Part shown: positions 1,585 through 61,511 of the stretch, one piece after another
Numbering within the stretch: the stretch's first letter is position 1
How the letters are laid out: every line of letters begins with the position of its first letter
Assembly (NCBI GenBank): GCA_003154195.1
Contig: PMCS01000009.1
Span: 19,014-83,013, forward strand
DNA from: Candidatus Omnitrophota bacterium
GTDB lineage: Bacteria > Omnitrophota > Gorgyraeia > Duberdicusellales > 4484-171
DNA: 64,000 bases
Direction of reading: 5' to 3'
The notes under the pieces: model-generated
Seen by the model: only the letters and a program-made list of their open reading frames with translations
Told to the model about the DNA's origin: nothing
The model's database searches: none
Program-made: the position numbers and the translations under genes

Positions 1585-1620
1585 TAACGCCGGCGTAATT
1601 GCTGGTTTATTATATATAAC

Positions 1621-2594: not shown

Positions 2595-2680
2595 CCGGAA
2601 AAATGAGAAAACTCATTTTTCCGGTTAGGTGCTGCCTGACGGCAGGGAAAAATATAGTTCAGCGTTTAAAAACTAAAATT

Positions 2681-4331: not shown

Positions 4332-4332
4332 T

Positions 4333-4731: not shown

Positions 4732-4741
4732 GGGGGATACT

Positions 4742-5413: not shown

Positions 5414-5478
5414 AAGCTATTTTTTAAAATGCTAAGGATTATGGTTTGACGGCATAAATCCCGGACGTTAAAAAAAGT

Positions 5479-5525
5479 AAAACCTTCGTTGGTTTGATTA
5501 TAACTGGCGAAGGTTTTTTGTTTTG
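5479..5525 (+). terminator. Candidate rho-independent terminator after phoU (operon 1)
   Basis: aaccttcg…cgaaggtt stem followed by ttttttgttttg. Confidence 0.4.
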
Positions 5526-5661
5526 ATTTATATAATTTCGAGGAAAAAAATTTTACATAGATTTAACATTGGTTTAATCGGAACATAATATAAGGGTAAT
5601 AGAATAACATTTAGATTAACTGGAATAATACAGGTATTGCGCTTCTAAAAAGGAGGTCTGA

Positions 5662-6513: not shown

Positions 6514-6551
6514 AATTACCTACGGGTGATTTTATCCCGTTAGCGAGAATA

Positions 6552-6677
6552 CCCCCGCCGTTAGGCGGGGGATGACAACAGGATGGGACGTCGCCCCACC
6601 CCGTGGGGCTCCAGTTTAATCCCGACGAGTATGTGAAAATTATCGTAGAGAATTTTCACATATTTTACGAGTCGGGG
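6552..6677 (+). promoter_or_regulatory. Cluster of GC hairpins (cccccgcc-gtta-ggcggggg; ccccaccccgtgggg; tgtgaaaatt…aattttcaca nested in cccgac…gtcggg) between pstS2 and pstC2
   Basis: Seen in the sequence; same position as the operon-1 hairpin. Confidence 0.4.
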
Positions 6678-6691
6678 TAATCTTAATACTA

Positions 6692-7555
6692 ATGCGTAGA
6701 TTAAAAGAATTCATTATTGAAAAACTCATTCTAATCTGCGGGTTAGCTTCAATATTTTTTGTGGTGTTGATTTTCCTTTTCTTGCTCAAAGAAGGGCTTG
6801 CGGTATTTAAGACGGTAAGCCCTTTTAAGTTTCTCTTGGGCAAGAGCTGGTACCCCATTTCAGAACCGCCTCAGTTAGGAATTCTTCCGTTAATCCTTGG
6901 CTCTTTACTGGTTACTGCCGGCGCGGCGATCATTTCTATTCCCATAGGAGTGGGTTGCGCAATTTATATCGCCGAGATAGCGCCATTAAGAATCAAAGAG
7001 ACCCTTAAAGCAGGGATTGAATTATTGGCAGCCATTCCCAGCGTAGTTTTAGGATTTATCGGTATGATAACCCTCGTTCCATTAGTAAAGTCAATTTTTC
7101 ATTTACCAACCGGATTAACCGCTTTATCCGGTTCAATAATGCTGGCTTTTATGGCCATGCCGACAATAGTTTCAATTGCTGAAGATGCATTATATTCTGT
7201 ACCTAAAACGTATAAAGAAGGCGCTCTCGCGCTGGGAGCGACACACTGGCAGACAATATGGCGAGTAATGCTTCCGGCGGCATCAAGCGGCATCCTTGCG
7301 GCAGTTATGCTTGGGATTGGCAGGGTAATCGGTGAAACAATGGCCGTGATGATGATCACGGGTAACGCCGCAGTCATACCAAATAGCATTTTAGCGCCGG
7401 TTAGAACTTTGACTGCTACTATCGCCGCGGAAATGGGTGAAGCGGTAGTAGGCAGCGAACATTATTTTGCTTTATTTGCTATTGGCATAGTTCTGTTTGT
7501 TATTAGCTTTGCGATTAATGTAACCGCGGACTTATTCTTGCACAAGAGGCAGTAA
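6692..7555 (+). CDS. pstC: Phosphate ABC transporter permease PstC (operon 2)
   Basis: Homologous to operon-1 PstC (…EDALYSVPKTYKEGALALGATHWQT…). Confidence 0.85.
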   Translation: MRRLKEFIIEKLILICGLASIFFVVLIFLFLLKEGLAVFKTVSPFKFLLGKSWYPISEPPQLGILPLILGSLLVTAGAAIISIPIGVGCAIYIAEIAPLRIKETLKAGIELLAAIPSVVLGFIGMITLVPLVKSIFHLPTGLTALSGSIMLAFMAMPTIVSIAEDALYSVPKTYKEGALALGATHWQTIWRVMLPAASSGILAAVMLGIGRVIGETMAVMMITGNAAVIPNSILAPVRTLTATIAAEMGEAVVGSEHYFALFAIGIVLFVISFAINVTADLFLHKRQ

Positions 7556-8403
7556 TGAAAAATCCTTATCGAACACAAAAGATTGCATTTTTCTTTTTAT
7601 TCCTGGCGACACTTTTAATAGTGGTTCCGGTAGGCTTAATCGTTGTCGTTATTATTCAAAAAGGACTGCCGGCAATCAACTGGCAGTTCGTTTCGGATAT
7701 GCCAAGACAGGGGATGCGTGCCGGCGGCATATTCCCGGCGATCGTAGGAACGATATATTTAGTTACCGGCGCTATTATCTTTGCTCTGCCGATAGGGCTT
7801 CTCGCGGCCATATACTTAAGCGAATATTCAAAAGATAACTTACTTACCCGGCTTATAAAATTAGCCATCGTGAATCTGGCGGGTGTGCCTTCGGTAGTTT
7901 ATGGGCTTTTTGGCCTGGCCCTTTTTGTAGTATTTTTTAAATTCGGCGCATCAATTATTTCCGGCTCGCTTACCCTGGGGATCATGATTCTCCCCGTAAT
8001 TATTACTACTTCACGCGAAGCCTTGGAAAGTGTACCGTATTCTTTTCGTGAGGTAAGTTTATCTTTAGGCGCAAGCAAATGGCAAACCATACGCCACATT
8101 ATTCTTCCTAATGCCCTCCCGGGTATATTAACCGGAACCATTTTAGGTTTAGGAAGGGCAGCGGGAGAAACGGCACCGATTCTTTTTACGGTTGCTGCTT
8201 TTTATCTGCCACGATTACCCAATTCTATTTTTGATCAAGCAATGGCGCTGCCGTACCATCTTTATGTCATTTCAACACAAGTGCCTAATGTCGACGAGAA
8301 GATAAGGTATGGAACAGCGCTTGTTTTGCTGGCGTTAGTTCTCTTCATGAATTTAGTGGCAATAATTATTCGATATAAGTTCAGAAAGAAGAAAAAATGG
8401 TAA
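7555..8403 (+). CDS. pstA: Phosphate ABC transporter permease PstA (operon 2)
   Basis: Homologous to PstA1 (…REALESVPYSFREVSLSLGASKWQT…). Confidence 0.85.
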   Translation: MKNPYRTQKIAFFFLFLATLLIVVPVGLIVVVIIQKGLPAINWQFVSDMPRQGMRAGGIFPAIVGTIYLVTGAIIFALPIGLLAAIYLSEYSKDNLLTRLIKLAIVNLAGVPSVVYGLFGLALFVVFFKFGASIISGSLTLGIMILPVIITTSREALESVPYSFREVSLSLGASKWQTIRHIILPNALPGILTGTILGLGRAAGETAPILFTVAAFYLPRLPNSIFDQAMALPYHLYVISTQVPNVDEKIRYGTALVLLALVLFMNLVAIIIRYKFRKKKKW

Positions 8404-9143
8404 AAGTTGACATAAAAAATCTTAATATCTGGTTTGGTTCCGTGCATGCCCTGAAGCAGGTAAGCATGGTAATACAGGCTAACGAAATCTTAAGCGTAAT
8501 CGGTCCTTCCAACAGCGGTAAGACAACTTTTTTAAGAACGCTTAATCGTTTAAGTGATTTAAACCAGAATTTTAGAATGACCGGAACAATAAAGCTTGAA
8601 CAAGAAGATATCGGGAATATTGATACGGAATTATTGCGTAAAAAAGTAGGCATGGTATTTGCGCTGCCGCTCCCGCTTCCCCTGTCTATTTTTGATAATG
8701 TGGCTTACGGGGTAAGGATGCACGGCACGAAAAACAAGAAAATACTGAGAGAGATAGTGGAGGTATCGTTGAACGAAGCCTATCTCTGGGAAGAGGTAAA
8801 AGATAGGTTAAATGAATCAGCTTTTAAATTGTCCGGGGGCCAGCAACAGCGTTTGTGTATCGCTAGAACCCTTGCCGTTGAGCCGGAGGTAATTTTATTT
8901 GACGAGCCCTGTTCGGGGCTCGATCCTATATCCACCGCAAAAGTAGAAGATGCCCTGGTTAAGCTAAAACAAAAATACACGATAGTCCTGGTAACCAACA
9001 ATGTAAAGCAGGCAGCCAGGGTTGGTGATATGACCGCTTTCTTTTTAGGCGGCGAACTTATTGAACTGGATAAAACAGACAAGATTTTTACCGCGCCGCA
9101 AGACAAACGCACGGATGGTTATATCAGAGGAAAATTCGGATAA
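8397..9143 (+). CDS. pstB: PstB paralog with degenerate catalytic motifs (operon 2, first of two)
   Basis: Walker [10 protein letters not shown] (atypical), Q-loop Gln replaced (VFALPLPLP), H-loop His replaced (VTNNV), but canonical LSGGQQQRL signature and Walker B. Confidence 0.8.
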
Positions 9144-9184
9144 TCCCCTTCGGGGAGGAAGCGCGACAAAAGAAGGAGGCTCCA

Positions 9185-32853: not shown

Positions 32854-32900
32854 TCCCCCTCCCATTATTGGCAGCGGCCTGTCAAAAACAAACAAATTTC

Positions 32901-33010
32901 AACCACATGATTGCACAGATTTCACTGAAAAATATAAATTCCGATAATGTAAAAAACTGAAAATCTTAAAAATCTGTGAAATCTTGTGAAATCAGTGGTT
33001 GCAGTTTTTA
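32901..33010 (+). repeat. MITE-like ~110-bp element with terminal inverted repeats aaccacatgatt.cacagatttcac; copy 1
   Basis: Matches 49398-49509. Confidence 0.5.
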
Positions 33011-40653: not shown

Positions 40654-40740
40654 TGCTTATCTCATTAGAATAATGATGACCGCCGATGAGAAGATGCAGA
40701 TGACCACAGATAAAATAATCAAATTCCCAACAGCTATCTG

Positions 40741-40775
40741 CGATCATCTGTTTCTTTTAATCCGCGATCATCTGC
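40741..40775 (+). promoter_or_regulatory. Direct repeats gcgatcatctg (x2, 24 bp apart) plus an agatgcagatg upstream copy between nadA and glnA; ATCTG-motif family
   Basis: Seen in the sequence. Confidence 0.3.
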
Positions 40776-40778
40776 GTA

Positions 40779-45490: not shown

Positions 45491-45664
45491 ATCGTTTGGA
45501 GAAAAATAAACCACGAAATACTTTTATCCTCAGATTATAGCGATTATCAGATTACAAACAAAAACAAGACCAAAAAATATCTAGTCCACAGATTACTCGA
45601 ATTGTCACAGACAAACACGAAATACACGAAAAAAATAATATTGCTTATGCCTATCGGTGATAAA

Positions 45665-45730
45665 AACTTAATTTCTTAATCCGTGAAAATCTGCGTAATC
45701 TGTGGATGAAAATATTTTTAGTTTTTAATT
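45665..45730 (+). repeat. Partial copy of the ~90-bp ATCTG-triple-repeat element (…aatccgtgaaaatctgcgtaatctgtggatg…)
   Basis: Matches the cores at 54254, 55111 and 58351. Confidence 0.4.
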
Positions 45731-49397: not shown

Positions 49398-49509
49398 AAA
49401 AACTGCAACCACATGATTACACAGATTTCACTGATTTCAGATTGATTTTGTATTTTTTTACATTATCGGAATTTGTATTTTTCAGTGTAATCGGTGGAAT
49501 CTTGTGGTT
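49398..49509 (+). repeat. MITE-like element, copy 2 (inverted relative to copy 1)
   Basis: Shares aaaaactgcaacca…ttttttacattatcggaattt.tatttttcagtg…tgtggtt with the reverse complement of 32901-33010. Confidence 0.5.
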
Positions 49510-49529
49510 AAAATTCATGGGGACATGCA

Positions 49530-49945: not shown

Positions 49946-50017
49946 ATATTTTTGTATTATTATAATTTGACAAAATATGATTTTTATGGTATATTTTAGT
50001 TGAAGGAGTTAATACTT

Positions 50018-50287
50018 ATGCTAAGAAAGCTCGGTCAAAACTATCAAATTGCTTTACCGCGTTCTTTTGTCGCCGCGCTGCACCTGCGTGCCAACGACTA
50101 TCTGGATATCGAAATAAAAGATAATAAGATAATTATCGAACCGCAGGTGATGATACCTAAGGCCCAGGCCTACTTCTACACCCCCGAATGGCAAAAGGAA
50201 GAAGCTTGCGCTGACGCCGACATAAAGAGCGGAAAAACCACCAAAACCAAAAATATAAAAGAGTTGTTTGATGAACTGGATAAATAA
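50018..50287 (+). CDS. AbrB/MazE/SpoVT-type antitoxin
   Basis: LRKLGQNYQIALPRSFVAAL…IEIKDNKIIIEP swapped-hairpin domain; RBS aaggag; ATGA overlap with the toxin gene. Confidence 0.65.
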   Translation: MLRKLGQNYQIALPRSFVAALHLRANDYLDIEIKDNKIIIEPQVMIPKAQAYFYTPEWQKEEACADADIKSGKTTKTKNIKELFDELDK

Positions 50288-50544
50288 TGCATATCGAAGC
50301 AACCCCTACTTTTATCCGGCTCTATAAAAAACTGCCGCCGGAAATCAAAGAACGCGCTAAAAAAATCCTGGAACTTCTGGAAACTAACCCTTCCTACCCC
50401 TCATTAGGCCATAAAAAAATGGCAGGGCAAACCGATATTTACGAAATCCGCGTATCCGACAACTACCGCATAACCTATCAAAGAATCGGCTCAACCGCGT
50501 ACTTGCGCAAAATCGGCACGCATAATCTTCTACAAAACCCCTGA
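50287..50544 (+). CDS. RelE/ParE-family toxin
   Basis: …YEIRVSDNYRITYQRIGSTAYLRKIGTH… RelE-like C-terminus. Confidence 0.7.
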   Translation: MHIEATPTFIRLYKKLPPEIKERAKKILELLETNPSYPSLGHKKMAGQTDIYEIRVSDNYRITYQRIGSTAYLRKIGTHNLLQNP

Positions 50545-50563: not shown

Positions 50564-53410
50564 TTAAATACCGCAGGCGCTTTTAAAGGAGCAGTAGGAA
50601 CAGCGTTGTTCATCAGGAACAGCCACAAAATCCACTTCCGGATTGATAATCTCCTCGAAAATAAAATCCAGCGCCCGCAGGCACACCGTCATCACTTCTT
50701 CCCGCTGTTTCGCTTCCGCGGGACGGATAAAAGGAAGCAGGTCCAGGGTGCGGATATTGTAAAGCTGAGCGTTGACCTGTTTTCCGGGAAATTGGCGGGA
50801 AATAAAATAGTAATAAATCGGCAGTTGGAACGACTTCATACTCTCGCTGATATTTTGCCGGGTCAGCTCCATTTTGGAAAGCCCGGAAAGGCTCTTGGGT
50901 TGGACGTCGCTGGAACCGGTCTTATAATCGATGATAACAATCGAATCGTCGCGCAATTCATCGACCCGGTCGGCGGTATAGCCGAAAGTAACCTCGTGTT
51001 TGCTCAGTTTCATCACCCCTTCGATTCGCTCTTCCAGGGCAAGGATCTTCTTAACATCGCGCCGCTTCTCTTCTTCCAGGAATTTGCGCATCCGGTCCTG
51101 CAAGATCCCCCACAACAAAAACGAATCGGATTTCATCCTCCGCTTGATCGTCTCGTTAAAGCGCTTTTCCATCACGTTAAAAAAATAGCGGGAGAATTCT
51201 TCATCGATTATCGGTTGAACTCCTTTGAACTTACCGAGGGTTTCTTCCAGCAATTCGTGAATAAAAGTGCCGATACTATCAGCCCGCGGGTCATCAAGCA
51301 GCCCCCGCTTTTCTTTCAGCCCCAGGCAATAAGTATAATAAAATTTCAACGGGCAGGATAAATAAACATTCAGGCGGCTGGCGGAATAACGGTCGGCCAA
51401 TAACCGCGCAACCATCTCCGGGGTTTTCTTCGCGGTATTTTGCGGCAAACTCGGCGCCAGGTTAAACGCCGCGCGCTGCGGCTCCAGCACATCGAGCCGT
51501 CCCGTTTCCTTCTGTCTCTGCCAGATCAACTCTTCGACAAAACGGCTCTTTTCTTTCTCTTTGGTCTCCTCATAAATCAAATGGACGCGTTTAGCGCCGT
51601 TGATCAGGCGCATAAACTGGTAGCGCTGGATTTCCTCTTCTTTTTCCAGGCGGTTTATCCCCAACTGCAGCATCACTTCCCGCGGGATCAGCGGCTCGTA
51701 AATCTTAAGCCGGGGCATTACCGATTCATTTAAATCCAAAGCAATCACATTATCGAAATTAAGCGAACGGGTCTCAAACAACCCTAAAATCTGCAGCCCT
51801 TTAAGCGGTGAACCGGAAAACGATAAGAGTTCGCTCTTTATCTTCTGCAAAAAAATCAGCCACAGTTCTTCGGGATTAAACTTTTCATGCTTAAAACTTA
51901 ATTCCGCCAGCTCGTCCTTAACGTTAAAGAGTTTTTCCAACGCCTTAATATTAAACGGGTAATTGCCGATATAACTTTTCCGGCTCAGCGTGTCTAAAAG
52001 CGCTTCCAGCACTCGGCTAAATCCGGCAAAATCATTTGTCGCTTCCCAGCCGCGCAACACCGTATCGTGGACATATTTTAAAATCGCCCGGCAATCATCA
52101 AGGCTGACCTTGATCTCGCCGGCCTTTAAAATCTCCAGGGCCCCGCGGTAGATCACCGTTTCCTTCTCAATTGCTTCTAAATCAATGAATAAAGTTCCGC
52201 CGATATCCGATTCGATTTCACCGTCCAACGCCTCTTCCAATTTGTGGACGAGCACCCGCGTCGCCTCATGGCCAAACCCGGCGTCGATATTTTTGATCAA
52301 GGGATGGCGCATCACCTGCAGATAATCCCGCGCGTAGTATTTATCCCCCTTCTTACTCTCCACCGCCCGCACCAGATATTCGAACAAACTGCACACCACA
52401 CTGCGCTTTAACGGATAGCCCATCGATACATTAAACTCATCGACATTGGAAGAAATCTCCGACAACAACGGCACTACTGCTTCCGGTTGGGGCAGTAAGA
52501 TAAGGGTCTTCTCTTTATCGCTGATGGTGTTTATGATATCGCGGCAGATGCAGACCTGGGAGTGAAGGTCAAAGCCTTCATGCAAAGAAAGATTAACTTT
52601 GACGCTTTGACGCTTTGACGCGCTTAATGCGCCGGGAACAATTGAGGAGCCGAATAACTTGGCATTGTGGGCTAAAACTGGCCATTCGGCTTCGTCGCCC
52701 TGGAAAATACAGCTCCCCTTTCTCGAATCGAGCACGGCTTTAATAATCGCGCCCTCGGTGGCGTGGAGATAAAAAAAGTTACAGAACAATACCGCGTCGA
52801 AGTCATCTAAATTATTCCCGGCGGCCAGAGCGCCGGCCGCTGAATAACGCTTGCCGCGCGCCATCACGCCCTGCTTAGCCAATTCCTCATGATAAAGCTT
52901 GCGCAACACTCCCATCGACTCAAGAAGCTTATTAATACTCTCCGGAACATCAAACCCGATTTGCGCGCTGGCCTTGATCGAAAGTAACTTCTCATCGGGA
53001 ATTCCTTCCAAATCAAGCTGTTCGATGAACGAAACCACTTCCCGCGCCCAGGGCAAGAATTCATTAAAGCTTTTCTTCTCCTTTAACACCCCGGATGCGT
53101 TCTTCTTCGCCAATTTATACAAAATATAACCGGCATCTAAATCGGATATCCCGGCCAGCGGTTTCCCCTGCCCGACCAACCAATCGACAAAATCATCCAT
53201 GGAAAAAACCTTAGGCGGGACGAAACTGGTGCCGATTCGATTAGCGAGTGCTTTGCGCAAAAACAAGCCGGGACGTTTGCCGCCAAAGACACAGGCGACG
53301 CGGGAATAGTCGGTGGTCTTGCCGAAGCGGTCGAGAATGATATCCGCCAACCGCTCAATAAAATTCTCGCCGAAAGATAGGGTTATCGATTTAATATTAT
53401 TTGCGCCCAT
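50564..53410 (-). CDS. AddB-like PD-(D/E)xK nuclease-family protein with C-terminal Fe-S cysteine cluster; ORF is open to 53446
   Basis: C-terminal …IIDYKTG… nuclease motif and CSYCSFKSACG cysteines; 950-aa size typical of AddB/RexB-type subunits. Confidence 0.65.
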   Translation of the reverse strand: MGANNIKSITLSFGENFIERLADIILDRFGKTTDYSRVACVFGGKRPGLFLRKALANRIGTSFVPPKVFSMDDFVDWLVGQGKPLAGISDLDAGYILYKLAKKNASGVLKEKKSFNEFLPWAREVVSFIEQLDLEGIPDEKLLSIKASAQIGFDVPESINKLLESMGVLRKLYHEELAKQGVMARGKRYSAAGALAAGNNLDDFDAVLFCNFFYLHATEGAIIKAVLDSRKGSCIFQGDEAEWPVLAHNAKLFGSSIVPGALSASKRQSVKVNLSLHEGFDLHSQVCICRDIINTISDKEKTLILLPQPEAVVPLLSEISSNVDEFNVSMGYPLKRSVVCSLFEYLVRAVESKKGDKYYARDYLQVMRHPLIKNIDAGFGHEATRVLVHKLEEALDGEIESDIGGTLFIDLEAIEKETVIYRGALEILKAGEIKVSLDDCRAILKYVHDTVLRGWEATNDFAGFSRVLEALLDTLSRKSYIGNYPFNIKALEKLFNVKDELAELSFKHEKFNPEELWLIFLQKIKSELLSFSGSPLKGLQILGLFETRSLNFDNVIALDLNESVMPRLKIYEPLIPREVMLQLGINRLEKEEEIQRYQFMRLINGAKRVHLIYEETKEKEKSRFVEELIWQRQKETGRLDVLEPQRAAFNLAPSLPQNTAKKTPEMVARLLADRYSASRLNVYLSCPLKFYYTYCLGLKEKRGLLDDPRADSIGTFIHELLEETLGKFKGVQPIIDEEFSRYFFNVMEKRFNETIKRRMKSDSFLLWGILQDRMRKFLEEEKRRDVKKILALEERIEGVMKLSKHEVTFGYTADRVDELRDDSIVIIDYKTGSSDVQPKSLSGLSKMELTRQNISESMKSFQLPIYYYFISRQFPGKQVNAQLYNIRTLDLLPFIRPAEAKQREEVMTVCLRALDFIFEEIINPEVDFVAVPDEQRCSYCSFKSACGI

Positions 53411-53415
53411 ATAAT

Positions 53416-54000
53416 TCAATAAAATTGTCCTGTAGGGGCCGGGCATGCCCGGCCCGTTAATATCATGTCTGGTTCGCGATTCGGTGATTTAAGATTTATT
53501 ATGTTTTCATTATCATCAGCCCATTTTGCAGGGTTATTAATTATGTATTCACGTATATTTTTTAATGATTCTTCCGTACGTATATGATGGTCATAGAAAA
53601 AACGCTGCCATTTAAATGAATTATTATTCAATTTATTAATTTGCCGCGAAACGGCTGACTTGAACGACCCGATTATAACCGATAAATTGTTATTTTTTTT
53701 ATTTTGATTAACGGGACGGGCATGCCCGTCCCCTACAGGACTATTGATTATTATTATCCCATGTATATGGTTCGGCATAACGATATATTCATCTAACTCA
53801 ACGTTGGGACAATGGCACGCAATCTCTTGCCAGGCTTTCCTGACGATTACTCCATATTCGTTTAAAACCATGCAATCACCTTTAATCTGGCCGAATAATT
53901 CTTTGTGATTATACGTACAAATCGTCACATAATAATACCCTGCCTTGGAATAATCATATCCTTTTAATCTGATTGCTTTTCGTTTCGGAAATTCTTGCAT
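53416..54000 (-). CDS. REP-associated tyrosine transposase (RAYT), copy 2
   Basis: KRKAIRLKGYDYSKAGYYYVTICT…, HUH MPNHIHGII, catalytic Tyr IREYIINNPAKW. Confidence 0.8.
   Translation of the reverse strand: MQEFPKRKAIRLKGYDYSKAGYYYVTICTYNHKELFGQIKGDCMVLNEYGVIVRKAWQEIACHCPNVELDEYIVMPNHIHGIIIINSPVGDGHARPVNQNKKNNNLSVIIGSFKSAVSRQINKLNNNSFKWQRFFYDHHIRTEESLKNIREYIINNPAKWADDNENIINLKSPNREPDMILTGRACPAPTGQFY
53429..53460 (+). repeat. Perfect 20-bp GC palindrome GGGCCGGGCATGCCCGGCCC (with cctgtag… flank) inside the RAYT2 3' coding region
   Basis: Seen in the sequence; self-complementary. Confidence 0.65.
53708..53739 (+). repeat. Second perfect 20-bp GC palindrome GGGACGGGCATGCCCGTCCC (inverted partner of 53429-53460) inside the RAYT2 coding region
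   Basis: Seen in the sequence; encodes an SPVGDGHARPVNQ insertion between the HUH and Tyr motifs. Confidence 0.65.
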
Positions 54001-54151
54001 TTTATTGCGTAAATTTTAGCCACGAATCACGGTGCGAAGCGAAGCGTAGCCTCCCCTTAGAGACGAATTACGCAAATGGGATATTTTTCCCGCAAAGGCG
54101 CCCGCCTAGCCAAGCAAGGCAAGGCTGGCAAAGAACGCAAAGAAAAAAATC

Positions 54152-54166
54152 ATGGTAGCTGTCCCC
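54152..54166 (+). repeat. REP-like motif atggtagctgtcccc (= GGGGACAGCTACCAT on the RAYT2 coding strand) 150 bp upstream of RAYT2
   Basis: Same 15-mer as the RAYT1-associated repeats. Confidence 0.55.
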
Positions 54167-54210
54167 GAAATTTCCTCTGTGGTAAATATTTTTATCTTAT
54201 TCGCGAGATT

Positions 54211-54300
54211 TGTGTTATTCGTTGTTAAAATCTTTCCCCGCTTTTTCTTTCTTAATCTGTGAAAATCTGCGTAATCTGTGGACAAAATTTTTTGTTTTCT
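54211..54300 (+). repeat. ~90-bp conserved intergenic element with triple ATCTG core (aatctgtgaaaatctgcgtaatctgtggac) followed by an A/T tract; copy A
   Basis: Copies at 55081-55160, 58307-58394, partial at 45665-45730. Confidence 0.5.
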
Positions 54301-54387
54301 CCCGTATTTTATCTTTTCAATTATGCGCGGATAGAATTAATACAAGCCCAGAGATAAGACAAACGAACACTTACGGCAACGGTGGGG

Positions 54388-54804
54388 TTATTTTAACTTT
54401 TTATTTTTTGTTTCTAAAGAAAAAACGAGTTTGGGATAATCGATAGTAAGGATGAAGCTGCTCAAAAAGCTTTTTACGCCAAGCAGCGGCACATGAAGGT
54501 TGGGCATGAAATCTATCAAAATATTATTAATTTCGAAATCATCAATCTTGACACAAACCGTATGGGAATAGGCAAGAGTTTTGCCGTTACCGGTATTAAT
54601 TTCTTTAGCAAAACCGGACTGTAAATCATGCCCTAAAATCGGAGCATACAAAGCCGGTAAGGCGCACTCATCGGCTCCGGTATCGATCAGGCCGTAAGCT
54701 TTAACGCTTTTGCCGGTATGAGGATTTTTAATAATTATCGCCAGCCATGGACGCGGGGTATCTTGAGGAGAGAATTTGGAGAAAGGTAAATTTCTTAAAT
54801 TCAT
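54388..54804 (-). CDS. Retropepsin-like (clan AA) aspartic protease
   Basis: LIDTGADECALP active-site motif. Confidence 0.7.
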   Translation of the reverse strand: MNLRNLPFSKFSPQDTPRPWLAIIIKNPHTGKSVKAYGLIDTGADECALPALYAPILGHDLQSGFAKEINTGNGKTLAYSHTVCVKIDDFEINNILIDFMPNLHVPLLGVKSFLSSFILTIDYPKLVFSLETKNKKLK

Positions 54805-54992
54805 TAGTAAATTTGAACCACATCATTTAAAGGGACAAAAATCACAACCGGTTCTTTACAGCCTTTATGCAAAGCTTTTTCGTAAGCTTCCTGGGGCGTA
54901 TCGCCGTCGCCGACAACGGTATTTTTCCCAAAATCTTTTATCGCGACATACCTGCCCCTGTATTTTTTATCTTTTATCAATACCTGCGTCAT
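54804..54992 (-). CDS. Small DUF5678-like protein (62 aa); start/stop-overlapping partner of the aspartic protease gene
   Basis: …YRGRYVAIKDFGKNTVVGDGDTPQEAYEKALHKGCKEPVVIFVP… pattern. Confidence 0.45.
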   Translation of the reverse strand: MTQVLIKDKKYRGRYVAIKDFGKNTVVGDGDTPQEAYEKALHKGCKEPVVIFVPLNDVVQIY

Positions 54993-55080
54993 ATATTTTC
55001 TTCTTTTTTTAAGATGGTAATTATACCGTGATGCTAAAATTCTAAAGGCTATGGCATTTTTGTCAATGAATATTTACCCC

Positions 55081-55160
55081 ATAATTCTCCTTCATCCTTC
55101 TTGCTTTACTCTGTGAAAATCTGTGTAATCTGTGGACAAATTTTTTTCGTTTTATCTATC
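55081..55160 (+). repeat. ~90-bp ATCTG element, copy B (ctctgtgaaaatctgtgtaatctgtggac)
   Basis: See 54211. Confidence 0.5.
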
Positions 55161-55161
55161 T

Positions 55162-55968
55162 TTACAAATCAGCCCTGTACTTCGCAATCAACGACGGAAC
55201 GACCGTATCGGCGTTAGCAATCAAATCGGCCTGGGCGTCTTCGAATAAAAACGGACGCAATTCTTCCGCCTGCTTTTTTAATTCCGCCGGCGAAAAGCTC
55301 TTAACTCTTTTAGCAATAACCTCCAGCGGGTTTTCCTTGATCCCCAACGAAGCCAGGACTTTCCGGTTAATCGGATAATTTTGGGAAAGCATAAAAATTA
55401 TATCGTACAGGTGCCGCGCCCGCGTTTTTTTAACCAGGGCGTCGATTTTATCGGCAAACAGCGCGCTCTTGTCGGTGCAGCCGCAGGTAAAAATCTCCCC
55501 AAAGCCGTTGATTACTTCGCTTTCCCTGACGATTTTCCATTTGGGCGTATTCGTCTCAATTTTAATGACAATCCCGGCTTTCTTCGAATACGCCGATTTA
55601 ACATTATACGCTTTTTCGATTTCCGGAAAGATTAAATTCCCCGCGAAAATATTACGCCAATGCTTAAAATTAACATCGGCAATAATGTTAGAACGGGCCA
55701 GCTCGGTTTTTACCTTATCCAGCAAGGTTTCAAACTGCCCCCCGGAAAGCTCATCGCAGTTAAAATCAAGGTCTTCAGAAAACCGTTTTAGATTATGCAC
55801 CAGCCGCAGGTATGTCCCGCCGGTAAAATACAGATGCTTACCGGTATCGGCCTTATAAATCTCTTTTAAAATCAATACCTGCAAATATTCGCGCAATACC
55901 CCGCGCATCTTATTACCCGGCATGCCCCGCAGTTTTGCCTGTTCGGTTAAACTCTCATAGGTCAGCAT
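55162..55968 (-). CDS. AbiEii/AbiGii-family nucleotidyltransferase toxin
   Basis: …REYLQVLILKEI…LYFTGGTYLRLVHNLKRFSEDLDF… family signature. Confidence 0.75.
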   Translation of the reverse strand: MLTYESLTEQAKLRGMPGNKMRGVLREYLQVLILKEIYKADTGKHLYFTGGTYLRLVHNLKRFSEDLDFNCDELSGGQFETLLDKVKTELARSNIIADVNFKHWRNIFAGNLIFPEIEKAYNVKSAYSKKAGIVIKIETNTPKWKIVRESEVINGFGEIFTCGCTDKSALFADKIDALVKKTRARHLYDIIFMLSQNYPINRKVLASLGIKENPLEVIAKRVKSFSPAELKKQAEELRPFLFEDAQADLIANADTVVPSLIAKYRADL

Positions 55969-56569
55969 AAATCACCTCTTCTACGTCGATATTATACTGC
56001 TTAGCGTATTTTTCCAGTTTCTTCTTATTCATCCCCGCGATAATGTTTTTATCCATCCGCTCTTCGCCTAAGATTGCCCGCTTCTTCCCGCGAAAGGTTT
56101 TAAAATGGACAAAATCGATTAAAGCCTTTTCCGGTTCGGCAATCAGGACATCGAAATCTCCCTGCCGTTCCACATAATAACCGCCAAACGCCTCTTTTTT
56201 TATCGTCCGGTAAATAAATAACCCGTGCAGGTTCCTGAATTTACGGGTAGGCTTGGTAGTAATCGAAGTCACCGCCATCGATACTTCCGGAATAACGCTG
56301 TAATGGGATAAAGCCGTCTCCAGGGAAACATACGACGGCGCGTATAAGCGGTTGGCAATATGCATATCGGAAATAGCATATTCCTCAGGATAAATCAATT
56401 CATAAAAATCTCGCTTCAATGCCCGGATAAACCCCTTTCCTTTCCAGCGATAAAGCAGTTTTTTAAGGCTCTCTTTTTTCTCCCGCGGGTAAAAAGAAAG
56501 CACATCCTCGCTGGTGAAAAGATAGTATTTTTTTCCCGATAATGTTTTATAAAATTCTTCGAATTTCAT
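55955..56569 (-). CDS. AbiEi-family antitoxin / transcriptional regulator
   Basis: Sits directly upstream of and overlaps AbiEii; AbiEi-like sequence. Confidence 0.65.
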   Translation of the reverse strand: MKFEEFYKTLSGKKYYLFTSEDVLSFYPREKKESLKKLLYRWKGKGFIRALKRDFYELIYPEEYAISDMHIANRLYAPSYVSLETALSHYSVIPEVSMAVTSITTKPTRKFRNLHGLFIYRTIKKEAFGGYYVERQGDFDVLIAEPEKALIDFVHFKTFRGKKRAILGEERMDKNIIAGMNKKKLEKYAKQYNIDVEEVIYADL

Positions 56570-56623
56570 AGTATTTCACATAAAGAATATATATGTCCTT
56601 TACCTGAAATAAGTATACAATAT

Positions 56624-58252
56624 TTAATGTGGGTTGTCAAGGGCGTACAACGCTTCCCGCGAAAGCTTAAGGGCTTCGTCAGCCAGGTATTCATCGAGCA
56701 GCATTTGCCGGTTGATAAAGCCGTCAGGCGTGATTTCGATGATGCGATTAGCCAGGGTCTGGATAAACTGGTGGTCCTGCGAAGAAAAAAGCAATGTTCC
56801 GGTAAAATTCTCCAGGCCTTTGTTGAGAGACGTGATCGATTCCATATCCAGGTGGTTGGTGGGTTCATCCATCACCAATACATTCGCGCCGGTGAGCATC
56901 ATCCGCGCGAACATGCAGCGGACCTTTTCGCCGCCGGAAAGCACGCTCACGCTCTTAAGCGTCTCGTCCCCGGAAAATAACATCTTCCCCAGGAAACTGC
57001 GGATAAAATCCTCCTCCTTATTGCCGGAATACTGCCTCAACCAATCAATAAGGTTCAAGCCGGACTCAAAATATTTTTTATTATCTTTGGGGTAGTAGGC
57101 GACCAACGCTGACGCGCCCCACTTATACGTACCACTGCCGGGGGTTAATTGGCCCATGATCGTCTCAAACAACGCCGTCTTGACCAGGTCATTGCGGCCT
57201 AAAAACGCGATGCGCTCTCCTTTTTGCACGCTCAAGGTAAAGTCATTAAGCATCGTCCGGCCATCGGCCGCGATACTCATGTGTTCGATATCCAGAATAT
57301 CATTACCCGCTTCTTTCTCGCTTTTAAAATAAATATGCGGGTAGCGGCGCGACGAGGGCTTAATATCATCCAGGGTCAGTTTCTCCAGAAGTTTTTTACG
57401 GCTGGTGGCCTGCCGCGATTTTGAAGCATTAGCGCTGAAGCGCGCGATAAATTCCTGCAATTCCTTGCGCTTTTCCTCGATCTTTTTGTTCGAATCGGAA
57501 CGCTGGCGCAAAACTAATTGGCTCGATTCATACCAGAAAGAGTAATTACCCGCATACAGCTGTATCTTGCCAAAATCAAGATCGGCGATATGAGTGCACA
57601 CCTTGTCGATAAAATGGCGGTCATGGGAAATAACGATAACGGTATTCTTAAACTCATATAAAAACTCCTCAAGCCATAAGTTAGTTTCGACATCTAAATG
57701 GTTAGTCGGCTCATCCAGAAGTAATATATCCGGGTTCCCGAACAGCGCCTGCGCTAAAAGCACGCGCACTTTCTGGCTCGATTCAAGCTGTTTCATCTTT
57801 AAACCATGCAGCTTTTCCTTAACGCCCATCCCGCTCAACAGCTTTGCCGCCTCACCTTCGGCATCCCAGCCATTGAGTTCGCCGAATTCATGCTCCAGCT
57901 CAGCGGCAAGCATGCCGTCAGCGTCGCTGAAATCAGGCTTGGCATATAAGGCGTCCTTTTCAGTCATGATCTCATAGAGCCGTTTATGGCCCATGACAAC
58001 GGTAGCCAGCGCGGTATATTCATCATAGGCGTACTGGTCCTGCTTGAGCATCGATAAACGTTTACGCGGCTCAACACTCACTTCTCCGGCGCTGGGCTCG
58101 ACTTCTCCGGCCAAAATCTTCAGAAATGTAGTTTTGCCGGAACCATTGGCGCCGATAAGGCCATAGCAATTACCCGCCGAAAACGTAGCATTCACATTTT
58201 CGAACAAAGGTTCTTTGCCAAATCGTAAGGTAACATTAATCGCGGATATCAT
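56624..58252 (-). CDS. ABC-F family ATPase (two tandem ABC domains, no TMD)
   Basis: Two Walker A sites (GANGSGKTT, G.NG.GKT), two LSGGE/LSGGEK signatures, inter-domain linker. Confidence 0.85.
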   Translation of the reverse strand: MISAINVTLRFGKEPLFENVNATFSAGNCYGLIGANGSGKTTFLKILAGEVEPSAGEVSVEPRKRLSMLKQDQYAYDEYTALATVVMGHKRLYEIMTEKDALYAKPDFSDADGMLAAELEHEFGELNGWDAEGEAAKLLSGMGVKEKLHGLKMKQLESSQKVRVLLAQALFGNPDILLLDEPTNHLDVETNLWLEEFLYEFKNTVIVISHDRHFIDKVCTHIADLDFGKIQLYAGNYSFWYESSQLVLRQRSDSNKKIEEKRKELQEFIARFSANASKSRQATSRKKLLEKLTLDDIKPSSRRYPHIYFKSEKEAGNDILDIEHMSIAADGRTMLNDFTLSVQKGERIAFLGRNDLVKTALFETIMGQLTPGSGTYKWGASALVAYYPKDNKKYFESGLNLIDWLRQYSGNKEEDFIRSFLGKMLFSGDETLKSVSVLSGGEKVRCMFARMMLTGANVLVMDEPTNHLDMESITSLNKGLENFTGTLLFSSQDHQFIQTLANRIIEITPDGFINRQMLLDEYLADEALKLSREALYALDNPH

Positions 58253-58306
58253 AAGAAATTAAGATTGGAAATCCCGGGGAAACCGGATTCCTCCATTTGT
58301 ATGGTT

Positions 58307-58394
58307 CGTGTAATTCGTTGTTAAATTTTTCTTTGCCCCCTTCTTTTTCTCAATCTGTAAAATCTGCGTAATCTGTGGTTAAAAATTATTGTTT
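58307..58394 (+). repeat. ~90-bp ATCTG element, copy C (caatctgtaaaatctgcgtaatctgtggtt)
   Basis: See 54211. Confidence 0.5.
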
Positions 58395-61300
58395 TTATTT
58401 TATCTCCTCCACTTCCCCACTATCAAAATAAACCAGATACCCCTTTATCTTCTTACCCGGATATATCTCCCCCACAATTTCTTTATATTCTTTTACCTGC
58501 TCGACATGCGCCGCGAAATTATCCTTCGAACTCTTAAAATCGATCAGCACCGCATCCTCCGCCACAATCAACCGGTCAATGCGTTTTAAATTGCCCCGTT
58601 TGTCGGCTACTTCGTATTCGCAAAAGACCAGCGCTTTATCCGTATAGAAAAATGGTTTTAAATCCGGCTGTTTCAATAAAGTGAGCGCCTTCTTCTCGTA
58701 AACGCTAAAATCATCAATTTGCGGAAATAATATTTTGGCATCGTTGATTGCCCGCGCCACCGCTTCTTTTTCTTTTCCCTTCGCCGGCGCCGTAATCCGG
58801 GAAAAAATCGCGTGCAAGACCGTTCCTTCTAAAATCACCTGCCGGCGGCACAGGCTTCCCTCGTCGCCGAATTCTTCGCGCAATAGTTTAATCCAGTTGC
58901 CATAACAGGAAGGCTTGATATACTCCGCCATATCGCTTTTAGCCTCTGACTTTAATCCCGCGACGGGCTTACCCAGCTCGACGTTAGCGCCAGGAAAAAA
59001 TAACCGGGCAAGGTTAGCGGCGTTAGCGCTCTTTTTCGGCAGAAAAGCATAAATCTCATCTTTGGCGCGGGTTAACGCGACATAGATATTATTTAATTCA
59101 TCGACGCAAGCCCGGGCGTAAGCGGCCTCATATTTTGCCGCCAGGGTTTCGCTGAAAAGACAATGGGCCTGGGTGATACGCAATAACCCTAAATCCGGGG
59201 CGTGAGCCTGGTCCACATAAGCCGACTTCATCTTACCGTCGGCAGGGTTGATGTCCATACGTAAAAACGGGATGACCACCACATTATATTCCAGGCCCTT
59301 AGCCTTATGGACGGTCAGCACTTTAACTGCCTCACTAAGCCTGGCGTTAACAAAAAAATCTTCTTCGGGGAAATCGCTCTCGAAAAACTTTAAGAAATCG
59401 CCGAGCCCCGGATAATCATTTTCCTGTTTTTTTATCACCTCTAAAAGCTTCATAAAAAATCCCTGGCTTTGGGGAAAAAGCCGGCCCAGTTCGAATTTCG
59501 CGTAAATATCCACCGTCAGTTCGTAGTTAGAAATAAATCCGACGCTGCGGAAAAATTCATCGAAAAACTTACCCCAGAGCGCGGGGTATTTTTTCCGGAA
59601 TAACCGGTATAGCCGCGCCTCCGGCAATTCCTTAGCCTTACGGGAATTAGTGCCGAATAAAAATCCGGCGGCTTCCTCGCGCGGCAAGCCGGCAGCGTTC
59701 GTAAAAATATCGCTTAAAATAAACAGAGCGAAACTGTTATCGTCGATCGGCGAATGCAGGAATTTGAGCAGATTCACCAGGGCGGCGACATGGGGATTGC
59801 GCCGGACATCAAGCGTCTTCTCCGACTCCACGGGAATACCCGCTTCAATCAACCAGGAACTGACCGCCTCGACGTCGTTATTATCGCGGCAGAGGAACGC
59901 GATGTCTCCCAGGGAAAAACGCTTCCGAGCGGAGGCGACGATCTCTAAAATCTTAGGCCGGATAAAATCATTACGCGCCTGGTTGCTGTCGGCATCGACG
60001 CGCTCGACGCGCACATACCCGCCGTTTTTACCGAAAGATACTTTTTGATGGGCATTACCGAAGGTATCGAGAATCTCCCGGCGCGCCTGGGCGCTAAGGC
60101 CAAAATCGTCGCCCGCCAGCGTTGCGGCTAAATTATCCCGCGAAAAGATGTGGTTGTTAAATTCAACGATTTCCTGCCGGCTGCGCCAATTGGTATCCAG
60201 TATCGAAGTTTGCGCGCCGAAACGGCCATAGCCACGCCGGACCTCGTCGAACAGCCGGGCCTCACCGCCGCGGAAGCGGTAAATCGCCTGCTTCCGGTCG
60301 CCGACGTAGAAAAACGTCCCGCCCGCGGAAAGAGCGTCTTCGACCATCAACTCTAAATTACGCCACTGTAACGAGCTCGTATCCTGGAACTCATCGATCA
60401 AATAATGCCGGTAACGCGCGGAAAGACGGTAATAAATCTCCGCCACGCTCAACCCCTCTTCGCCAAAAAGCGAACGCGCGAAGCGGTTAAGCTGCTCTAA
60501 AAACAGGACATCGTCCTTGCGGGAAAAATCTTCGAAGTAACGCTGGGCCTGCGCGAACAGCCGGACATAAGGGTTATACGCCACGGTCGCGTCAAGTTCA
60601 GCGAGGCCGGTGATTTTACGCCGTAGCGCCTGCCACTTTTTCACGAAACCGGCGGGCGCGATTTTCTTCTTATTCATCGGCGGTTCGTCCTGGGCTAAAA
60701 GCTTCGATAAATTGGCGATATCGAAAAAATCGTCGTGTTTTTCCAGGAACCGGCCGAGCCACCCGCCAAACGGGCCGTTGATACCCTCGGGAAGATGATT
60801 CTGCAGATCCTGAAGCTGGGCGAATATTTCTTTTTTCGCGGCAAGCACGTCTTTAGAGCCGCCTTTATAAGGGGCGAATTCGCCGCCGTAACAATTAGTC
60901 AGCGCGAACAATCCGCGCAGCATCTCTAAAATATTTTCTTTGGGGAACCAGCCGGTCCGCGCCTCGACAAAGAGATAATGGCGCAGAAACTCGGTAAAAA
61001 TTCCCAGAAGTTCTTTGTCCGAAACCGTCTCATCGACCGCTTTATCGAAAGCGTATTCGATATAATCGGCATAGCCGCGCCGAATGCCGAAACTGGCGGA
61101 ACGGCCGATATTTAAAGCGCAGCCCAAAAGCAAAGCGTTGATAAACGAATCGATTGTCTGGACACTGAAAAAATTATAATGGCGGATGAGTTCGTCTAAA
61201 ATCGCGCGGGCGCGCTCCGGCGATTCTTTTTCGGATAGGTTTAAAGCATTTAGGATATCCTGTTTTTCCTGGGGGCTGGTAAACTTATCCAGAGCGATTT

Positions 61301-61511
61301 TCTTCAAAAACTCTAAAATCCTTTCTTTCATCTCCACCATCGCTTTATTGGTGAAGGTTATCGCGAGAATATTGCGTAAAGGGCTGCCGCCCGGCGGAAG
61401 GCCGCGGTCAAAGATAAGCTCCAGGTATCGCTTAGCCAGGCAGTAAGTCTTACCTGAACCGGCGGAAGCTTCTACGATAAAAACATGGGCCTTTTCGGAT
61501 ACTTTCTCCAT
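58395..61511 (-). CDS. AddA-like UvrD/Rep-family helicase with C-terminal PD-(D/E)xK nuclease domain
   Basis: N-terminal FIVEASAGSGKT Walker A, UvrD helicase motifs, C-terminal …RIDRLIV…VLIDFKSS nuclease motif. Confidence 0.8.
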   Translation of the reverse strand: MEKVSEKAHVFIVEASAGSGKTYCLAKRYLELIFDRGLPPGGSPLRNILAITFTNKAMVEMKERILEFLKKIALDKFTSPQEKQDILNALNLSEKESPERARAILDELIRHYNFFSVQTIDSFINALLLGCALNIGRSASFGIRRGYADYIEYAFDKAVDETVSDKELLGIFTEFLRHYLFVEARTGWFPKENILEMLRGLFALTNCYGGEFAPYKGGSKDVLAAKKEIFAQLQDLQNHLPEGINGPFGGWLGRFLEKHDDFFDIANLSKLLAQDEPPMNKKKIAPAGFVKKWQALRRKITGLAELDATVAYNPYVRLFAQAQRYFEDFSRKDDVLFLEQLNRFARSLFGEEGLSVAEIYYRLSARYRHYLIDEFQDTSSLQWRNLELMVEDALSAGGTFFYVGDRKQAIYRFRGGEARLFDEVRRGYGRFGAQTSILDTNWRSRQEIVEFNNHIFSRDNLAATLAGDDFGLSAQARREILDTFGNAHQKVSFGKNGGYVRVERVDADSNQARNDFIRPKILEIVASARKRFSLGDIAFLCRDNNDVEAVSSWLIEAGIPVESEKTLDVRRNPHVAALVNLLKFLHSPIDDNSFALFILSDIFTNAAGLPREEAAGFLFGTNSRKAKELPEARLYRLFRKKYPALWGKFFDEFFRSVGFISNYELTVDIYAKFELGRLFPQSQGFFMKLLEVIKKQENDYPGLGDFLKFFESDFPEEDFFVNARLSEAVKVLTVHKAKGLEYNVVVIPFLRMDINPADGKMKSAYVDQAHAPDLGLLRITQAHCLFSETLAAKYEAAYARACVDELNNIYVALTRAKDEIYAFLPKKSANAANLARLFFPGANVELGKPVAGLKSEAKSDMAEYIKPSCYGNWIKLLREEFGDEGSLCRRQVILEGTVLHAIFSRITAPAKGKEKEAVARAINDAKILFPQIDDFSVYEKKALTLLKQPDLKPFFYTDKALVFCEYEVADKRGNLKRIDRLIVAEDAVLIDFKSSKDNFAAHVEQVKEYKEIVGEIYPGKKIKGYLVYFDSGEVEEIK

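Follow-up and report, generated by a model that had tools for sequence, protein, structure and literature searches.

This report concerns the genes of an AddAB-type helicase-nuclease in a Candidatus Omnitrophota bacterium and a short repeat, here called the CAGAT repeat, that lies at several gene boundaries between them. The window analysed is a stretch of 64,000 nucleotides (NCBI GenBank assembly GCA_003154195.1, contig PMCS01000009.1, positions 19,014 to 83,013 of the forward strand). In it, addA and addB are separated by an island of ABC-F, AbiEi/AbiEii, DUF5678, aspartic protease and transposase genes. The locus is derived, its make-up is mosaic and the repeat is widely distributed in other genomes. 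With moderate confidence, the addAB operon is read here as having been split by the stepwise build-up of unrelated pieces, and the boundary element as a dispersed gene-boundary repeat of the kind represented by repetitive extragenic palindromes (REPs) and miniature inverted-repeat transposable elements (MITEs).

The addA-like gene (58395–61511, minus strand) encodes a protein of 1038 amino acids with a superfamily 1 (SF1) UvrD-type helicase (Pfam UvrD-helicase and UvrD_C) and a C-terminal RecB-type PD-(D/E)XK nuclease motif, the combination that characterizes AddA. In an alignment of 32 sequences the Walker A motif (GSGKT) and the nuclease residues Asp979, Asp991, Lys993, Gln1005 and Tyr1009 (D...D-x-K...Q-x3-Y) are invariant. 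The top match in the PDB is AddA of Bacillus subtilis (3U44_A, E-value 3.4e-21), the RecB-like helicase and addA models of NCBIfam match with scores below their cutoffs, and the closest protein matches are all from Candidatus Omnitrophota. The addB-like gene (50564–53410, minus strand) encodes 948 amino acids, with an N-terminal part resembling an inactive helicase and a C-terminal PD-(D/E)XK nuclease (Pfam PDDEXK_1, E-value 1.9e-28; NCBIfam addB_alphas, E-value 1e-22, below cutoff). The open reading frame (ORF) extends from 50564 to 53446, but the ATG at 53410 is the probable true start according to the alignment of orthologues, and gene callers give 948 amino acids in contig L124 (comparison contigs and loci carry L numbers in this report). 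The initiating ATG of the longer ORF falls within a palindrome. Cys698, Cys949, Cys952 and Cys958 are invariant in three orthologues and form the arrangement of AddB, with one cysteine upstream of a CxxCx5C group. Their role in binding an iron-sulphur cluster is presumably that known from B. subtilis AddB. Every addA, addB and recB model of NCBIfam scores far below its cutoff, and neither the single AddB-like sequence nor a profile matched a PDB sequence. Judged from these sequence features, the pair is a distant branch of the AddAB-type helicase-nuclease family.

An earlier note on this DNA had taken addA and addB to be normally adjacent and had proposed a search of related genomes for an uninterrupted pair. 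Such pairs were found. In the closest relative found (L001, 53% AddA identity) the two genes overlap by 4 nt, and in a second member of the Omnitrophota (L003; the AddA identity of these two closest relatives is ~50–53%) they are separated by 3 nt. They also lie side by side in many metagenomic loci of more distant lineages (L263, L264, L266–L268, L271, L297 and L319), whose neighbourhoods were obtained by a profile-based scan of metagenomes followed by tblastn. In the window the separation is ~4.95 kb (53411–58394). Since the genes touch or overlap in the relatives, the split state is derived. Their adjacency in relatives also bears out the assumption of the note that both genes belong to one system rather than to unrelated ones.

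Other lineages carry different genes at the same place. A radical-SAM enzyme is located between addA and addB in L276, and an aminotransferase with an OmpA-family protein in L277. In the more distant L270 (4347–7435) the interval holds RecQ, an MNT-like nucleotidyltransferase and a small ORF. In L261 and L262, an unknown protein of 571–635 residues is found instead. With cargo differing in this way between lineages, the addA-addB junction is a site that is repeatedly used in evolution. The intervening ORFs of L261 (13221–15128) and L262 (13071–14786), where AddA is ~40% identical, are co-oriented with their neighbours and have no Pfam match; they could encode a third component of the addAB system in that lineage. 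The nucleotidyltransferase of L270 represents a second toxin-antitoxin-like module at this junction. Furthermore, a MazE-like/ParE-like toxin-antitoxin pair (50000–50544, plus strand) lies directly downstream of addB in the window and converges with it. Relatives carry an RRM-domain gene at this position, so the flank has gained a toxin-antitoxin module as well.

All eight genes between 50564 and 61511 are encoded on the minus strand, and the gene list given in the earlier note is correct. The first gene after addA (56624–58252, minus strand) encodes an ABC-F ATPase of 542 amino acids, identified by Pfam; it scores 676 bits against the NCBIfam model PRK15064 (cutoff 762). It has two ABC ATPase domains joined by an ABC_tran_Xtn linker and no membrane domain, the hallmarks of an ABC-F translation factor. 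The G+C content at third codon positions (GC3) is 0.60, close to that of addA (0.59) and addB (0.60), and lower values are found for AbiEi/AbiEii (0.49/0.55), DUF5678/protease (0.43/0.40) and the transposase (0.35). The top matches of the ABC-F protein are Omnitrophota proteins with 70–88% identity. In these relatives the gene has other neighbours: an NMO-family gene and a second ABC-F gene flank it in L342, while L343 and L344 have it between MarC and a cold-shock gene. Native GC3, the taxonomy of the top matches and the differing neighbourhoods together mark the ABC-F gene as a relocated resident of the genome, not as foreign cargo.

The AbiE pair is joined directly to the end of the ABC-F gene. 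The antitoxin-like gene AbiEi (55955–56569, minus strand, 204 amino acids) matches the AbiEi model of PADLOC (E-value 3.5e-41) and, below cutoff, TAA_AbiEi of NCBIfam (E-value 3e-12). The nucleotidyltransferase toxin-like gene AbiEii (55162–55968, minus strand, 268 amino acids) matches Pfam AbiEii (E-value 5.8e-21) and PADLOC (E-value 6.4e-45), and its homologues at 60–69% identity come from Omnitrophota, Elusimicrobia, Planctomycetes and WOR-3. With an overlap of 14 nt and a predicted promoter of their own, the two genes form a putative type IV toxin-antitoxin system of the AbiE type. This sigma-70-like promoter (TTGACA-17-TATACT, 56612–56640, minus strand) overlaps the last codons of the ABC-F gene; the final six residues of ABC-F (ALDNPH) and its stop codon, at 56612–56643, are encoded by AbiE-promoter DNA. 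Promoter and leader recur in front of AbiEi in the unrelated genomes L345 and L346. Accordingly, the insertion rebuilt the end of the resident gene, and the ABC-F/AbiEi junction was formed without any copy of the repeat. In L345, another Omnitrophota genome, a second copy of the promoter (CCCTTGACGG...GTATACT) lies downstream of AbiEii at ~5470–5510, which hints that the AbiE cassette may duplicate or target its own promoter sequence on insertion.

The next module consists of a small DUF5678 protein (54804–54992, minus strand, 62 amino acids; Pfam E-value 3.2e-10) and a clan-AA, retropepsin-like aspartic protease (54388–54804, minus strand, 138 amino acids), the start of which overlaps the stop codon of the DUF5678 gene. 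The protease is just above the Pfam cutoff (gag-asp_proteas, 28.8 bits against 28.2), and the clan_AA models of NCBIfam match below theirs. A predicted sigma-70-like promoter (TTGACA-16-TAGAAT, 55039–55066, minus strand) precedes the DUF5678 ATG.

The last island gene (53416–54000, minus strand) encodes a REP-associated tyrosine transposase (RAYT) of 194 amino acids (Pfam Y1_Tnp; NCBIfam REP_Tyr_transpos, 63 bits, below cutoff) with the HUH motif NHIH and the Y motif YIINNP. The GC palindromes that had been noticed at the RAYT end are present, one at 53423–53461 and the other, inverted, at 53707–53745 (strand not assigned for either); both consist of GTAG followed by GGGCCGGGCATGCCCGGCCC. The copy at 53707–53745 interrupts the RAYT gene without shifting its frame; it separates the HUH motif from the Y motif and encodes SPVGDGHARPVNQ. 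The copy at 53423–53461 encodes the C-terminal tail of RAYT, and its end is close upstream of addB. As GT[AG]G-tagged hairpins that flank a transposase with these two motifs, the palindromes have the properties of REPs that belong to a RAYT. RAYTs of subclass 2.4 (Bertels group 4) are characterized by NH[IFV]H, YIxNNP and a mean length of 194 amino acids (Quentin et al. 2018, PMC6006769, Table 1), and a REP in frame between the two motifs is a trait unique to this subclass (PMC6006769). By these motifs the window RAYT is a textbook member of subclass 2.4 with known biology; the label RAYT2 in the earlier note was wrong, as signature and length are those of group 4 and not of group 2. Signature, GTAG-tagged GC-footed REPs and the internal REP agree with the published subclass-2.4 REPtrons (PMC6006769), without a notable difference. 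Homologous RAYT loci of Leptolinea, Fulvitalea and Spirosoma also carry GTAG-GC palindromes.

The differences in GC3 and the different types of junction support a mosaic, and in this respect the proposal of serial build-up inside an addBA-type operon was sound. Both addA and addB are intact and, as all genes are co-oriented, read-through could still reach addB. The island DNA is at least 99.7% identical in the 11 contigs compared, which include NCBI GCA_003154645.1. Among these contigs there is no cassette turnover, and the sole variant is a 56-nt deletion within one repeat copy in a single scaffold. No tRNA or tmRNA genes were found as possible integration targets.

The repeat is present in the window in four strong copies. 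Their 18-nt core, AATCTGYGTAATCTGTGG, occurs exactly at 54264, 55118 and 58361 in the island and at 45688 outside it, with 0.08 occurrences expected by chance; the core regions span 45677–45712, 54253–54288, 55109–55142 and 58350–58385. Copy E1 (58290–58394, minus strand) begins 15 nt past the addA stop codon and consists, on the sense strand, of CCACAGATTACGCAGATTTTACAGATT, a spacer of ~40 nt and a degenerate second module, TTTAACAACGAATTACACGAA. Copy E2 (55100–55161, minus strand) comprises the core only, with its CCAC end 26 nt past the AbiEii stop codon; the predicted promoter of the DUF5678 gene lies between E2 and the ATG of that gene. Copy E3 (54195–54312, minus strand) is a two-module unit like E1. 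The unit of ~90 nt contains one module twice, in direct orientation and in diverged form (ATCTGYGTAATCTGTGG and TTCGTGTAATTCGTTG). E1 and E3 are 83% identical over 93 nt, E2 and E3 88% over 59 nt, and E1 and E2 78% over 63 nt; the copy at 45.7 kb is 84–91% identical to the island copies over 50–54 nt, and so is as close to them as they are to one another. All four carry CCACAGATTAC on the sense strand, 15–107 nt past the stop codon of a minus-strand gene, the preceding genes being addA, AbiEii, the protease gene and a holin-4-like gene. Thus, the claim that repeats sit at the cassette boundaries stands in part: they are real, co-oriented and mark three of the five island junctions (ABC-F/AbiEi and RAYT/addB have none), but the full unit of ~90 nt is common only to E1 and E3, and the repeat is not specific to the island. 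E1 is not the ancestral upstream region of the ABC-F gene, because it has no similarity to the corresponding region of L342, the relative with 88% identity, beyond ~25 nt before the ATG.

The variant of E3 mentioned above, in contig L133, lacks exactly 56 nt (54209–54264) between its two direct modules. It is either a real slippage or recombination event between the modules or an assembly artefact at a repeat; if real, it only shows that direct modules can recombine or slip. Between E3 and RAYT, degenerate modules of opposite orientation, ATTTGCGTAATTCGTCT ... CACCGTGATTCGTGG on the sense strand (54020–54078, minus strand), were read by eye and are not a statistical match. They stop 20 nt short of the first RAYT codon, and their pairing with E3 is weak: the predicted fold of 54005–54305 pairs GAUUACGCAGAU with AUUUGCGUAAUUC (z = -1.8).

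Complete, palindromic family members are found outside the island (strand not assigned for any of them). The one at 45570–45715, between the holin-4-like gene and a HI0933-like flavoprotein gene, includes a further copy at 45580–45596 and folds with -36.8 kcal/mol (z = -4.3). A second one lies at 32895–33005 (z = -5.1). Both are inverted pairs with folds much more stable than those of shuffled sequences. There is a weaker inverted pair at 49407–49515 (copy at 49407–49437), between a phosphatase gene and an ORF of 121 amino acids, and degenerate inverted arrays of ATCTGYG-related units occupy 40681–40776. Each island copy is either a solo or a direct-repeat form and has no hairpin; calculated with RNA energy parameters, these copies fold no better than shuffled sequences on either strand (z from -1.3 to +1.1). 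All copies in the window are located in the region of minus-strand genes from 32 to 58 kb, as opposed to 0–24 kb, and the four strong ones have the same orientation. The GC skew is negative across 32–58 kb, and a replication-strand bias of the repeat is at most a possibility in so small a sample.

In other genomes, the 17-mer ATCTGYGTAATCTGTGG occurs at no fewer than 120 loci of more than 10 phyla in bacterial and archaeal contigs representing one genome per species. This collection comprises 596 Gb, so that ~140 matches are expected by chance and the number of matches is no evidence by itself. The viral collection is much smaller and also contains at least 120 loci, against 1 for a shuffled 17-mer of matched composition. 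Among the matches listed, with 80 titles, ~25 are Acidobacteriota and ~19 Bacteroidota (including Ignavibacteria); the others belong to Verrucomicrobiota, Lentisphaerae, Planctomycetota, Chloroflexota, Proteobacteria, Spirochaetota, WOR-3, Omnitrophica, Gemmatimonadota and Armatimonadota, with one Desulfosporosinus and one ANME-1 contig. Cultured carriers are Bacteroides finegoldii, Chryseobacterium, Flavobacterium sp. CF108 and Haliscomenobacter hydrossis. Furthermore, the flanks of the core are non-random: ATCTGYG units with a period of 9–10 nt lie upstream and A/T-rich AT(A/G)(A/G) sequence downstream, and inverted partners of the core are frequent at a distance of 0–130 nt. The architecture of the family is one of ATCTGYG/CRCAGAT units of 9–10 nt that terminate in CTGTGG/CCACAG, and its complete form is an inverted pair with the potential to form a long hairpin. 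The palindrome runs past the conserved core in lineage-specific ways in L105 and L110, so the core is not its terminus.

The repeat lies beside diverse housekeeping genes. It fills short intergenic gaps, as a rule immediately past a stop codon and often as far as the following start codon. The 109 neighbouring proteins matched 174 Pfam families, none of them in more than three members, and a link to one gene family was rejected on this ground; type II secretion ATPases, kinases, tRNA synthetases and ABC permeases are among the neighbours. Of 107 gaps bearing the motif, 35 are convergent, 62 co-directional and 10 divergent, both motif orientations are equally common in the co-directional ones, and the CTGTGG end is mostly within ~30 nt of a start or stop codon. 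The viral contig L257 (IMG/VR, 920–9170) illustrates this arrangement, with four successive gaps composed of a stop codon, ATCCGCAGATTACGCAGATTACACAGAT, 0–80 nt and ATCTGCGAAATCTGCGTAATCTGTGGAT, followed in three of the four by an ATG within ~10 nt. None of its eight ORFs has a Pfam match. Some right arms in L257 finish in GGAGG and could double as ribosome-binding sites. In the cultured B. finegoldii, the gap that separates a SPOR-domain gene from a BT_3928-family gene is organized in this way too, and at other loci genes are bracketed by inverted copies of the repeat. A hairpin acting as sense-strand RNA, suggested by G-U wobbles in the arms of L257, is not supported, as the 67 inverted pairs show no stability bias.

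The distribution is patchy. The repeat family was not found in ~250 kb of other Omnitrophota loci, at the AbiE loci of other genomes or at the three homologous RAYT loci of Leptolinea, Fulvitalea and Spirosoma. The presence of AbiE loci without the repeat led to the rejection of the idea that it is part of the AbiE cassette. Rfam gave no match, neither for the whole window at the gathering threshold nor for the island at E-values up to 5. Full-text searches of the literature with the core sequence returned unrelated primers only, keyword searches returned no description of such a repeat family, and the few core matches in annotated sequence collections carry no annotation. The REP surveys consulted do not describe the family, apart from an Ignavibacterium album REP that shares its CACAGATT stem. 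Of DnaA-box arrays, RNase E sites, the TTAC target of IS608, CRESS-type nonanucleotides, Pho boxes and multi-site ends of the Tn7 or IS21 type, none is known to fit the period of 9–10 nt, the orientation and the patchiness together.

These properties (intergenic position at gene 3' ends, indifference to orientation, multiple copies and patchiness between relatives) resemble those of REPs, of bacterial interspersed mosaic elements (BIMEs) or of MITEs, and the repeats are best read as gene-boundary elements of this kind that possibly also provide homology for rearrangement. The addA-addB junction has accumulated several unrelated pieces. The ABC-F gene of the genome itself has moved there from elsewhere, the AbiEi/AbiEii abortive-infection pair is joined with its own predicted promoter directly to the ABC-F end, and the DUF5678/protease two-gene module, likewise with a predicted promoter, has been added, as has a domesticated group-4 RAYT that is flanked and interrupted by its own GTAG-tagged REPs. 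The resulting layout is E1, ABC-F-AbiE, E2, DUF5678-protease and E3, with three direct copies of the repeat. Direct copies would be the expected footprint if circular or looped-out segments, each with one copy, had entered the junction through homologous recombination with a copy that was there before. Equally compatible is that each piece carries the element as its own 3' trailer. The elements themselves might act as hairpin or insulator-type sequences at transcript boundaries.

The stacking by homologous recombination is speculative, given the short homology of 78–88% identity and the lack of intermediate states. Several observations count against the explanation favoured here. Copies that share ~55–93 nt at 78–88% identity would be poor substrates for RecA-type recombination. 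No intermediate state of the island was found, since the 11 contigs are at least 99.7% identical and the next relative has only 53% AddA identity, so that order and mechanism of the events are deduced rather than observed. Of the strong copies, three out of four fall in the island, which contributes 7.6% of the intergenic sequence of the window (P ~0.002, post hoc), an enrichment exceeding what a purely passive element settling in any intergenic gap would predict. As the island copies stand, a hairpin-based function would not apply to them. Neither a target-site duplication, nor a presence/absence polymorphism, nor a transposase was found for the family, which makes its mobility a candidate property only. 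A consistent flanking duplication was not seen by eye at the repeat copies, including the L257 gaps, and no transposase was seen among the arm-bracketed genes, where the Pfam search covered the L257 ORFs and was not exhaustive. Finally, the favoured explanation does not account for identical 17-mers in different phyla.

The earlier note had suggested that the ~90-bp elements might be recombination sites of a novel cassette-capture structure, integron-like, with the cassettes taken up by a site-specific recombinase. This is very improbable. Toxin-antitoxin cassettes are typical integron cargo, and like an integron the island combines co-oriented small cassettes, including such a pair, with a recurring element of ~60–120 nt; its three copies share one orientation at unit boundaries, strong copies are enriched there, and genes bracketed by inverted copies occur at other loci. 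Yet the genes within ~10 kb on either side include neither a tyrosine or serine recombinase nor a DDE transposase (RAYT only), there is no IntI with attI beside the array and no attC fold at every cassette 3' end, and the island copies are not imperfect palindromes of the attC type. The cassettes have their own promoters, two of the five junctions are bare, among them the internal joint of ABC-F and AbiE, AbiE cassettes elsewhere lack the element, and turnover across the contigs compared is zero. Furthermore, members of the dispersed family to which the element belongs flank housekeeping genes, both in this window and across many phyla. That the elements are promoters or operator arrays, each driving or regulating the unit downstream of it, was also considered and is improbable. 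Each copy does lie upstream of a unit, its direct repeats of 9–10 nt resemble arrays of binding sites, a weak sigma-70-like match is present within E1, and in other genomes the CTGTGG end is often 5–40 nt from an ATG. However, the family is rare in divergent gaps, which hold promoters only (10 of 107), is common in convergent ones (35 of 107) and occurs in both orientations relative to the flanking genes. Separate, strong predicted sigma-70-like promoters are located downstream of E2 and at the AbiE start, and the island copies are antisense to the genes when read towards the ATG.

The RAYT of the island offers a further explanation, namely that the elements are cargo of the REPIN type (REP doublets forming hairpins) spread by this transposase and that the island is a REPtron neighbourhood. 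The RAYT gene starts 20 nt away from the degenerate right arm in the E3 region, the inverted pairs have a REPIN-like dimeric architecture, and the I. album REP GTAGCACAGATTAGTAATCTGTGCTAC, which belongs to a subclass-2.7 RAYT, shares the CACAGATT/AATCTGTG stem and is the one connection to known elements; across phyla, the distribution of subclasses 2.4 and 2.7 is itself patchy (PMC6006769). But the cognate REPs of subclass 2.4 are hairpins with GT[AG]G and a GC foot, and exactly those flank and interrupt the window RAYT. The arms of the CAGAT repeat lack a GT[AG]G foot and form no hairpin individually, and the Leptolinea, Fulvitalea and Spirosoma loci carry the palindromes without copies of the CAGAT type. 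Y1 transposases are not enriched near the repeat, with just two weak matches in ~1.9 Mb of motif-bearing loci, and this explanation is considered quite unlikely. Alternatively, the repeat could be a host-function signal, such as a site for RNase III or RNase E, for gyrase or a nucleoid protein, or a set of weak DnaA boxes, maintained by selection rather than mobility and present in the island incidentally. Conservation of the core across phyla and viral contigs and its exact placement between stop and start codons would agree with such a signal. Many copies terminate in TGTGGATAA, the DnaA-box consensus, and the sense-strand unit AG|AUU presumably fits the reported preference of RNase E. On the other hand, the absence from close Omnitrophota relatives is unfitting for a universal factor, the 67 pairs show no difference between sense and antisense hairpin stability, orientation relative to the genes is random, and no Rfam family corresponds to it; a host signal is unlikely. 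Tentatively, and with low probability, the CAGAT-unit palindrome may be an undescribed, horizontally spreading gene-boundary element whose core of 17–30 nt would imply an equally conserved partner (such as a nuclease, transposase or nucleic-acid-binding protein), the island copies having served as homology or insulation modules that stacked units within addAB.

Compared with known systems, the dispersed gene-boundary repeat favoured here is closest to REPs, BIMEs and REPINs. It shares with them the short length, the presence in multiple copies, the intergenic position after 3' ends, the depletion in divergent gaps, the frequent inverted dimers forming long hairpins, the patchiness between relatives and a RAYT in the same genome. 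In contrast to them, its arms are direct units of 9–10 nt that form no hairpin individually and carry no 5' GT[AG]G tag, canonical REPs of a different kind accompany the local RAYT, and a core of 17–30 nt recurs in viral contigs and across more than 10 phyla. Such a spread of an identical core is unexpected, as known REP and MITE families normally stay within one lineage. Correia/NEMIS of Neisseria and enterobacterial ERIC are MITEs that are co-transcribed with genes. They resemble the repeat in the look of their terminal inverted repeats, their size of 45–250 nt, their position in tight operon gaps and their predicted mRNA hairpins. Inverted arms are a MITE feature that the family possesses, but unlike these elements it yielded no target-site duplication, autonomous partner or presence/absence polymorphism. 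For repeat-mediated stacking, the nearest analogue is the PeSL ("promoter-early stem-loop") of T4-type phages, reportedly described by Arbiol and colleagues in 2010 as a mobile regulatory cassette, in which a stem-loop repeat is said to flank unrelated ORFs and to have been proposed as homology for modular shuffling. The PeSL reportedly has a defined early promoter and is confined to one phage group, whereas the CAGAT repeat has a very wide host range and is not obviously a promoter.

Taken as a whole, the island is unremarkable: a tolerant junction has received toxin-antitoxin modules and a domesticated transposase, and the repair genes are intact. Operons split in this manner, here by toxin-antitoxin and RAYT cargo, are common, and the locus adds one more; a RAYT with an internal REP has been described before. 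What makes the finding interesting is mostly the repeat family, and less the idea of cassette capture. Its core is letter-for-letter identical in Acidobacteriota, Bacteroidota, Verrucomicrobiota, Planctomycetota, Chloroflexota, Proteobacteria, Spirochaetota, Omnitrophota and viral contigs, and is missing from close relatives. If real and undescribed, the family would be either a miniature mobile element of very broad host range or the mark of a conserved protein or RNA partner not yet assigned. As the repeat is present in cultured, tractable bacteria, this question is directly testable.

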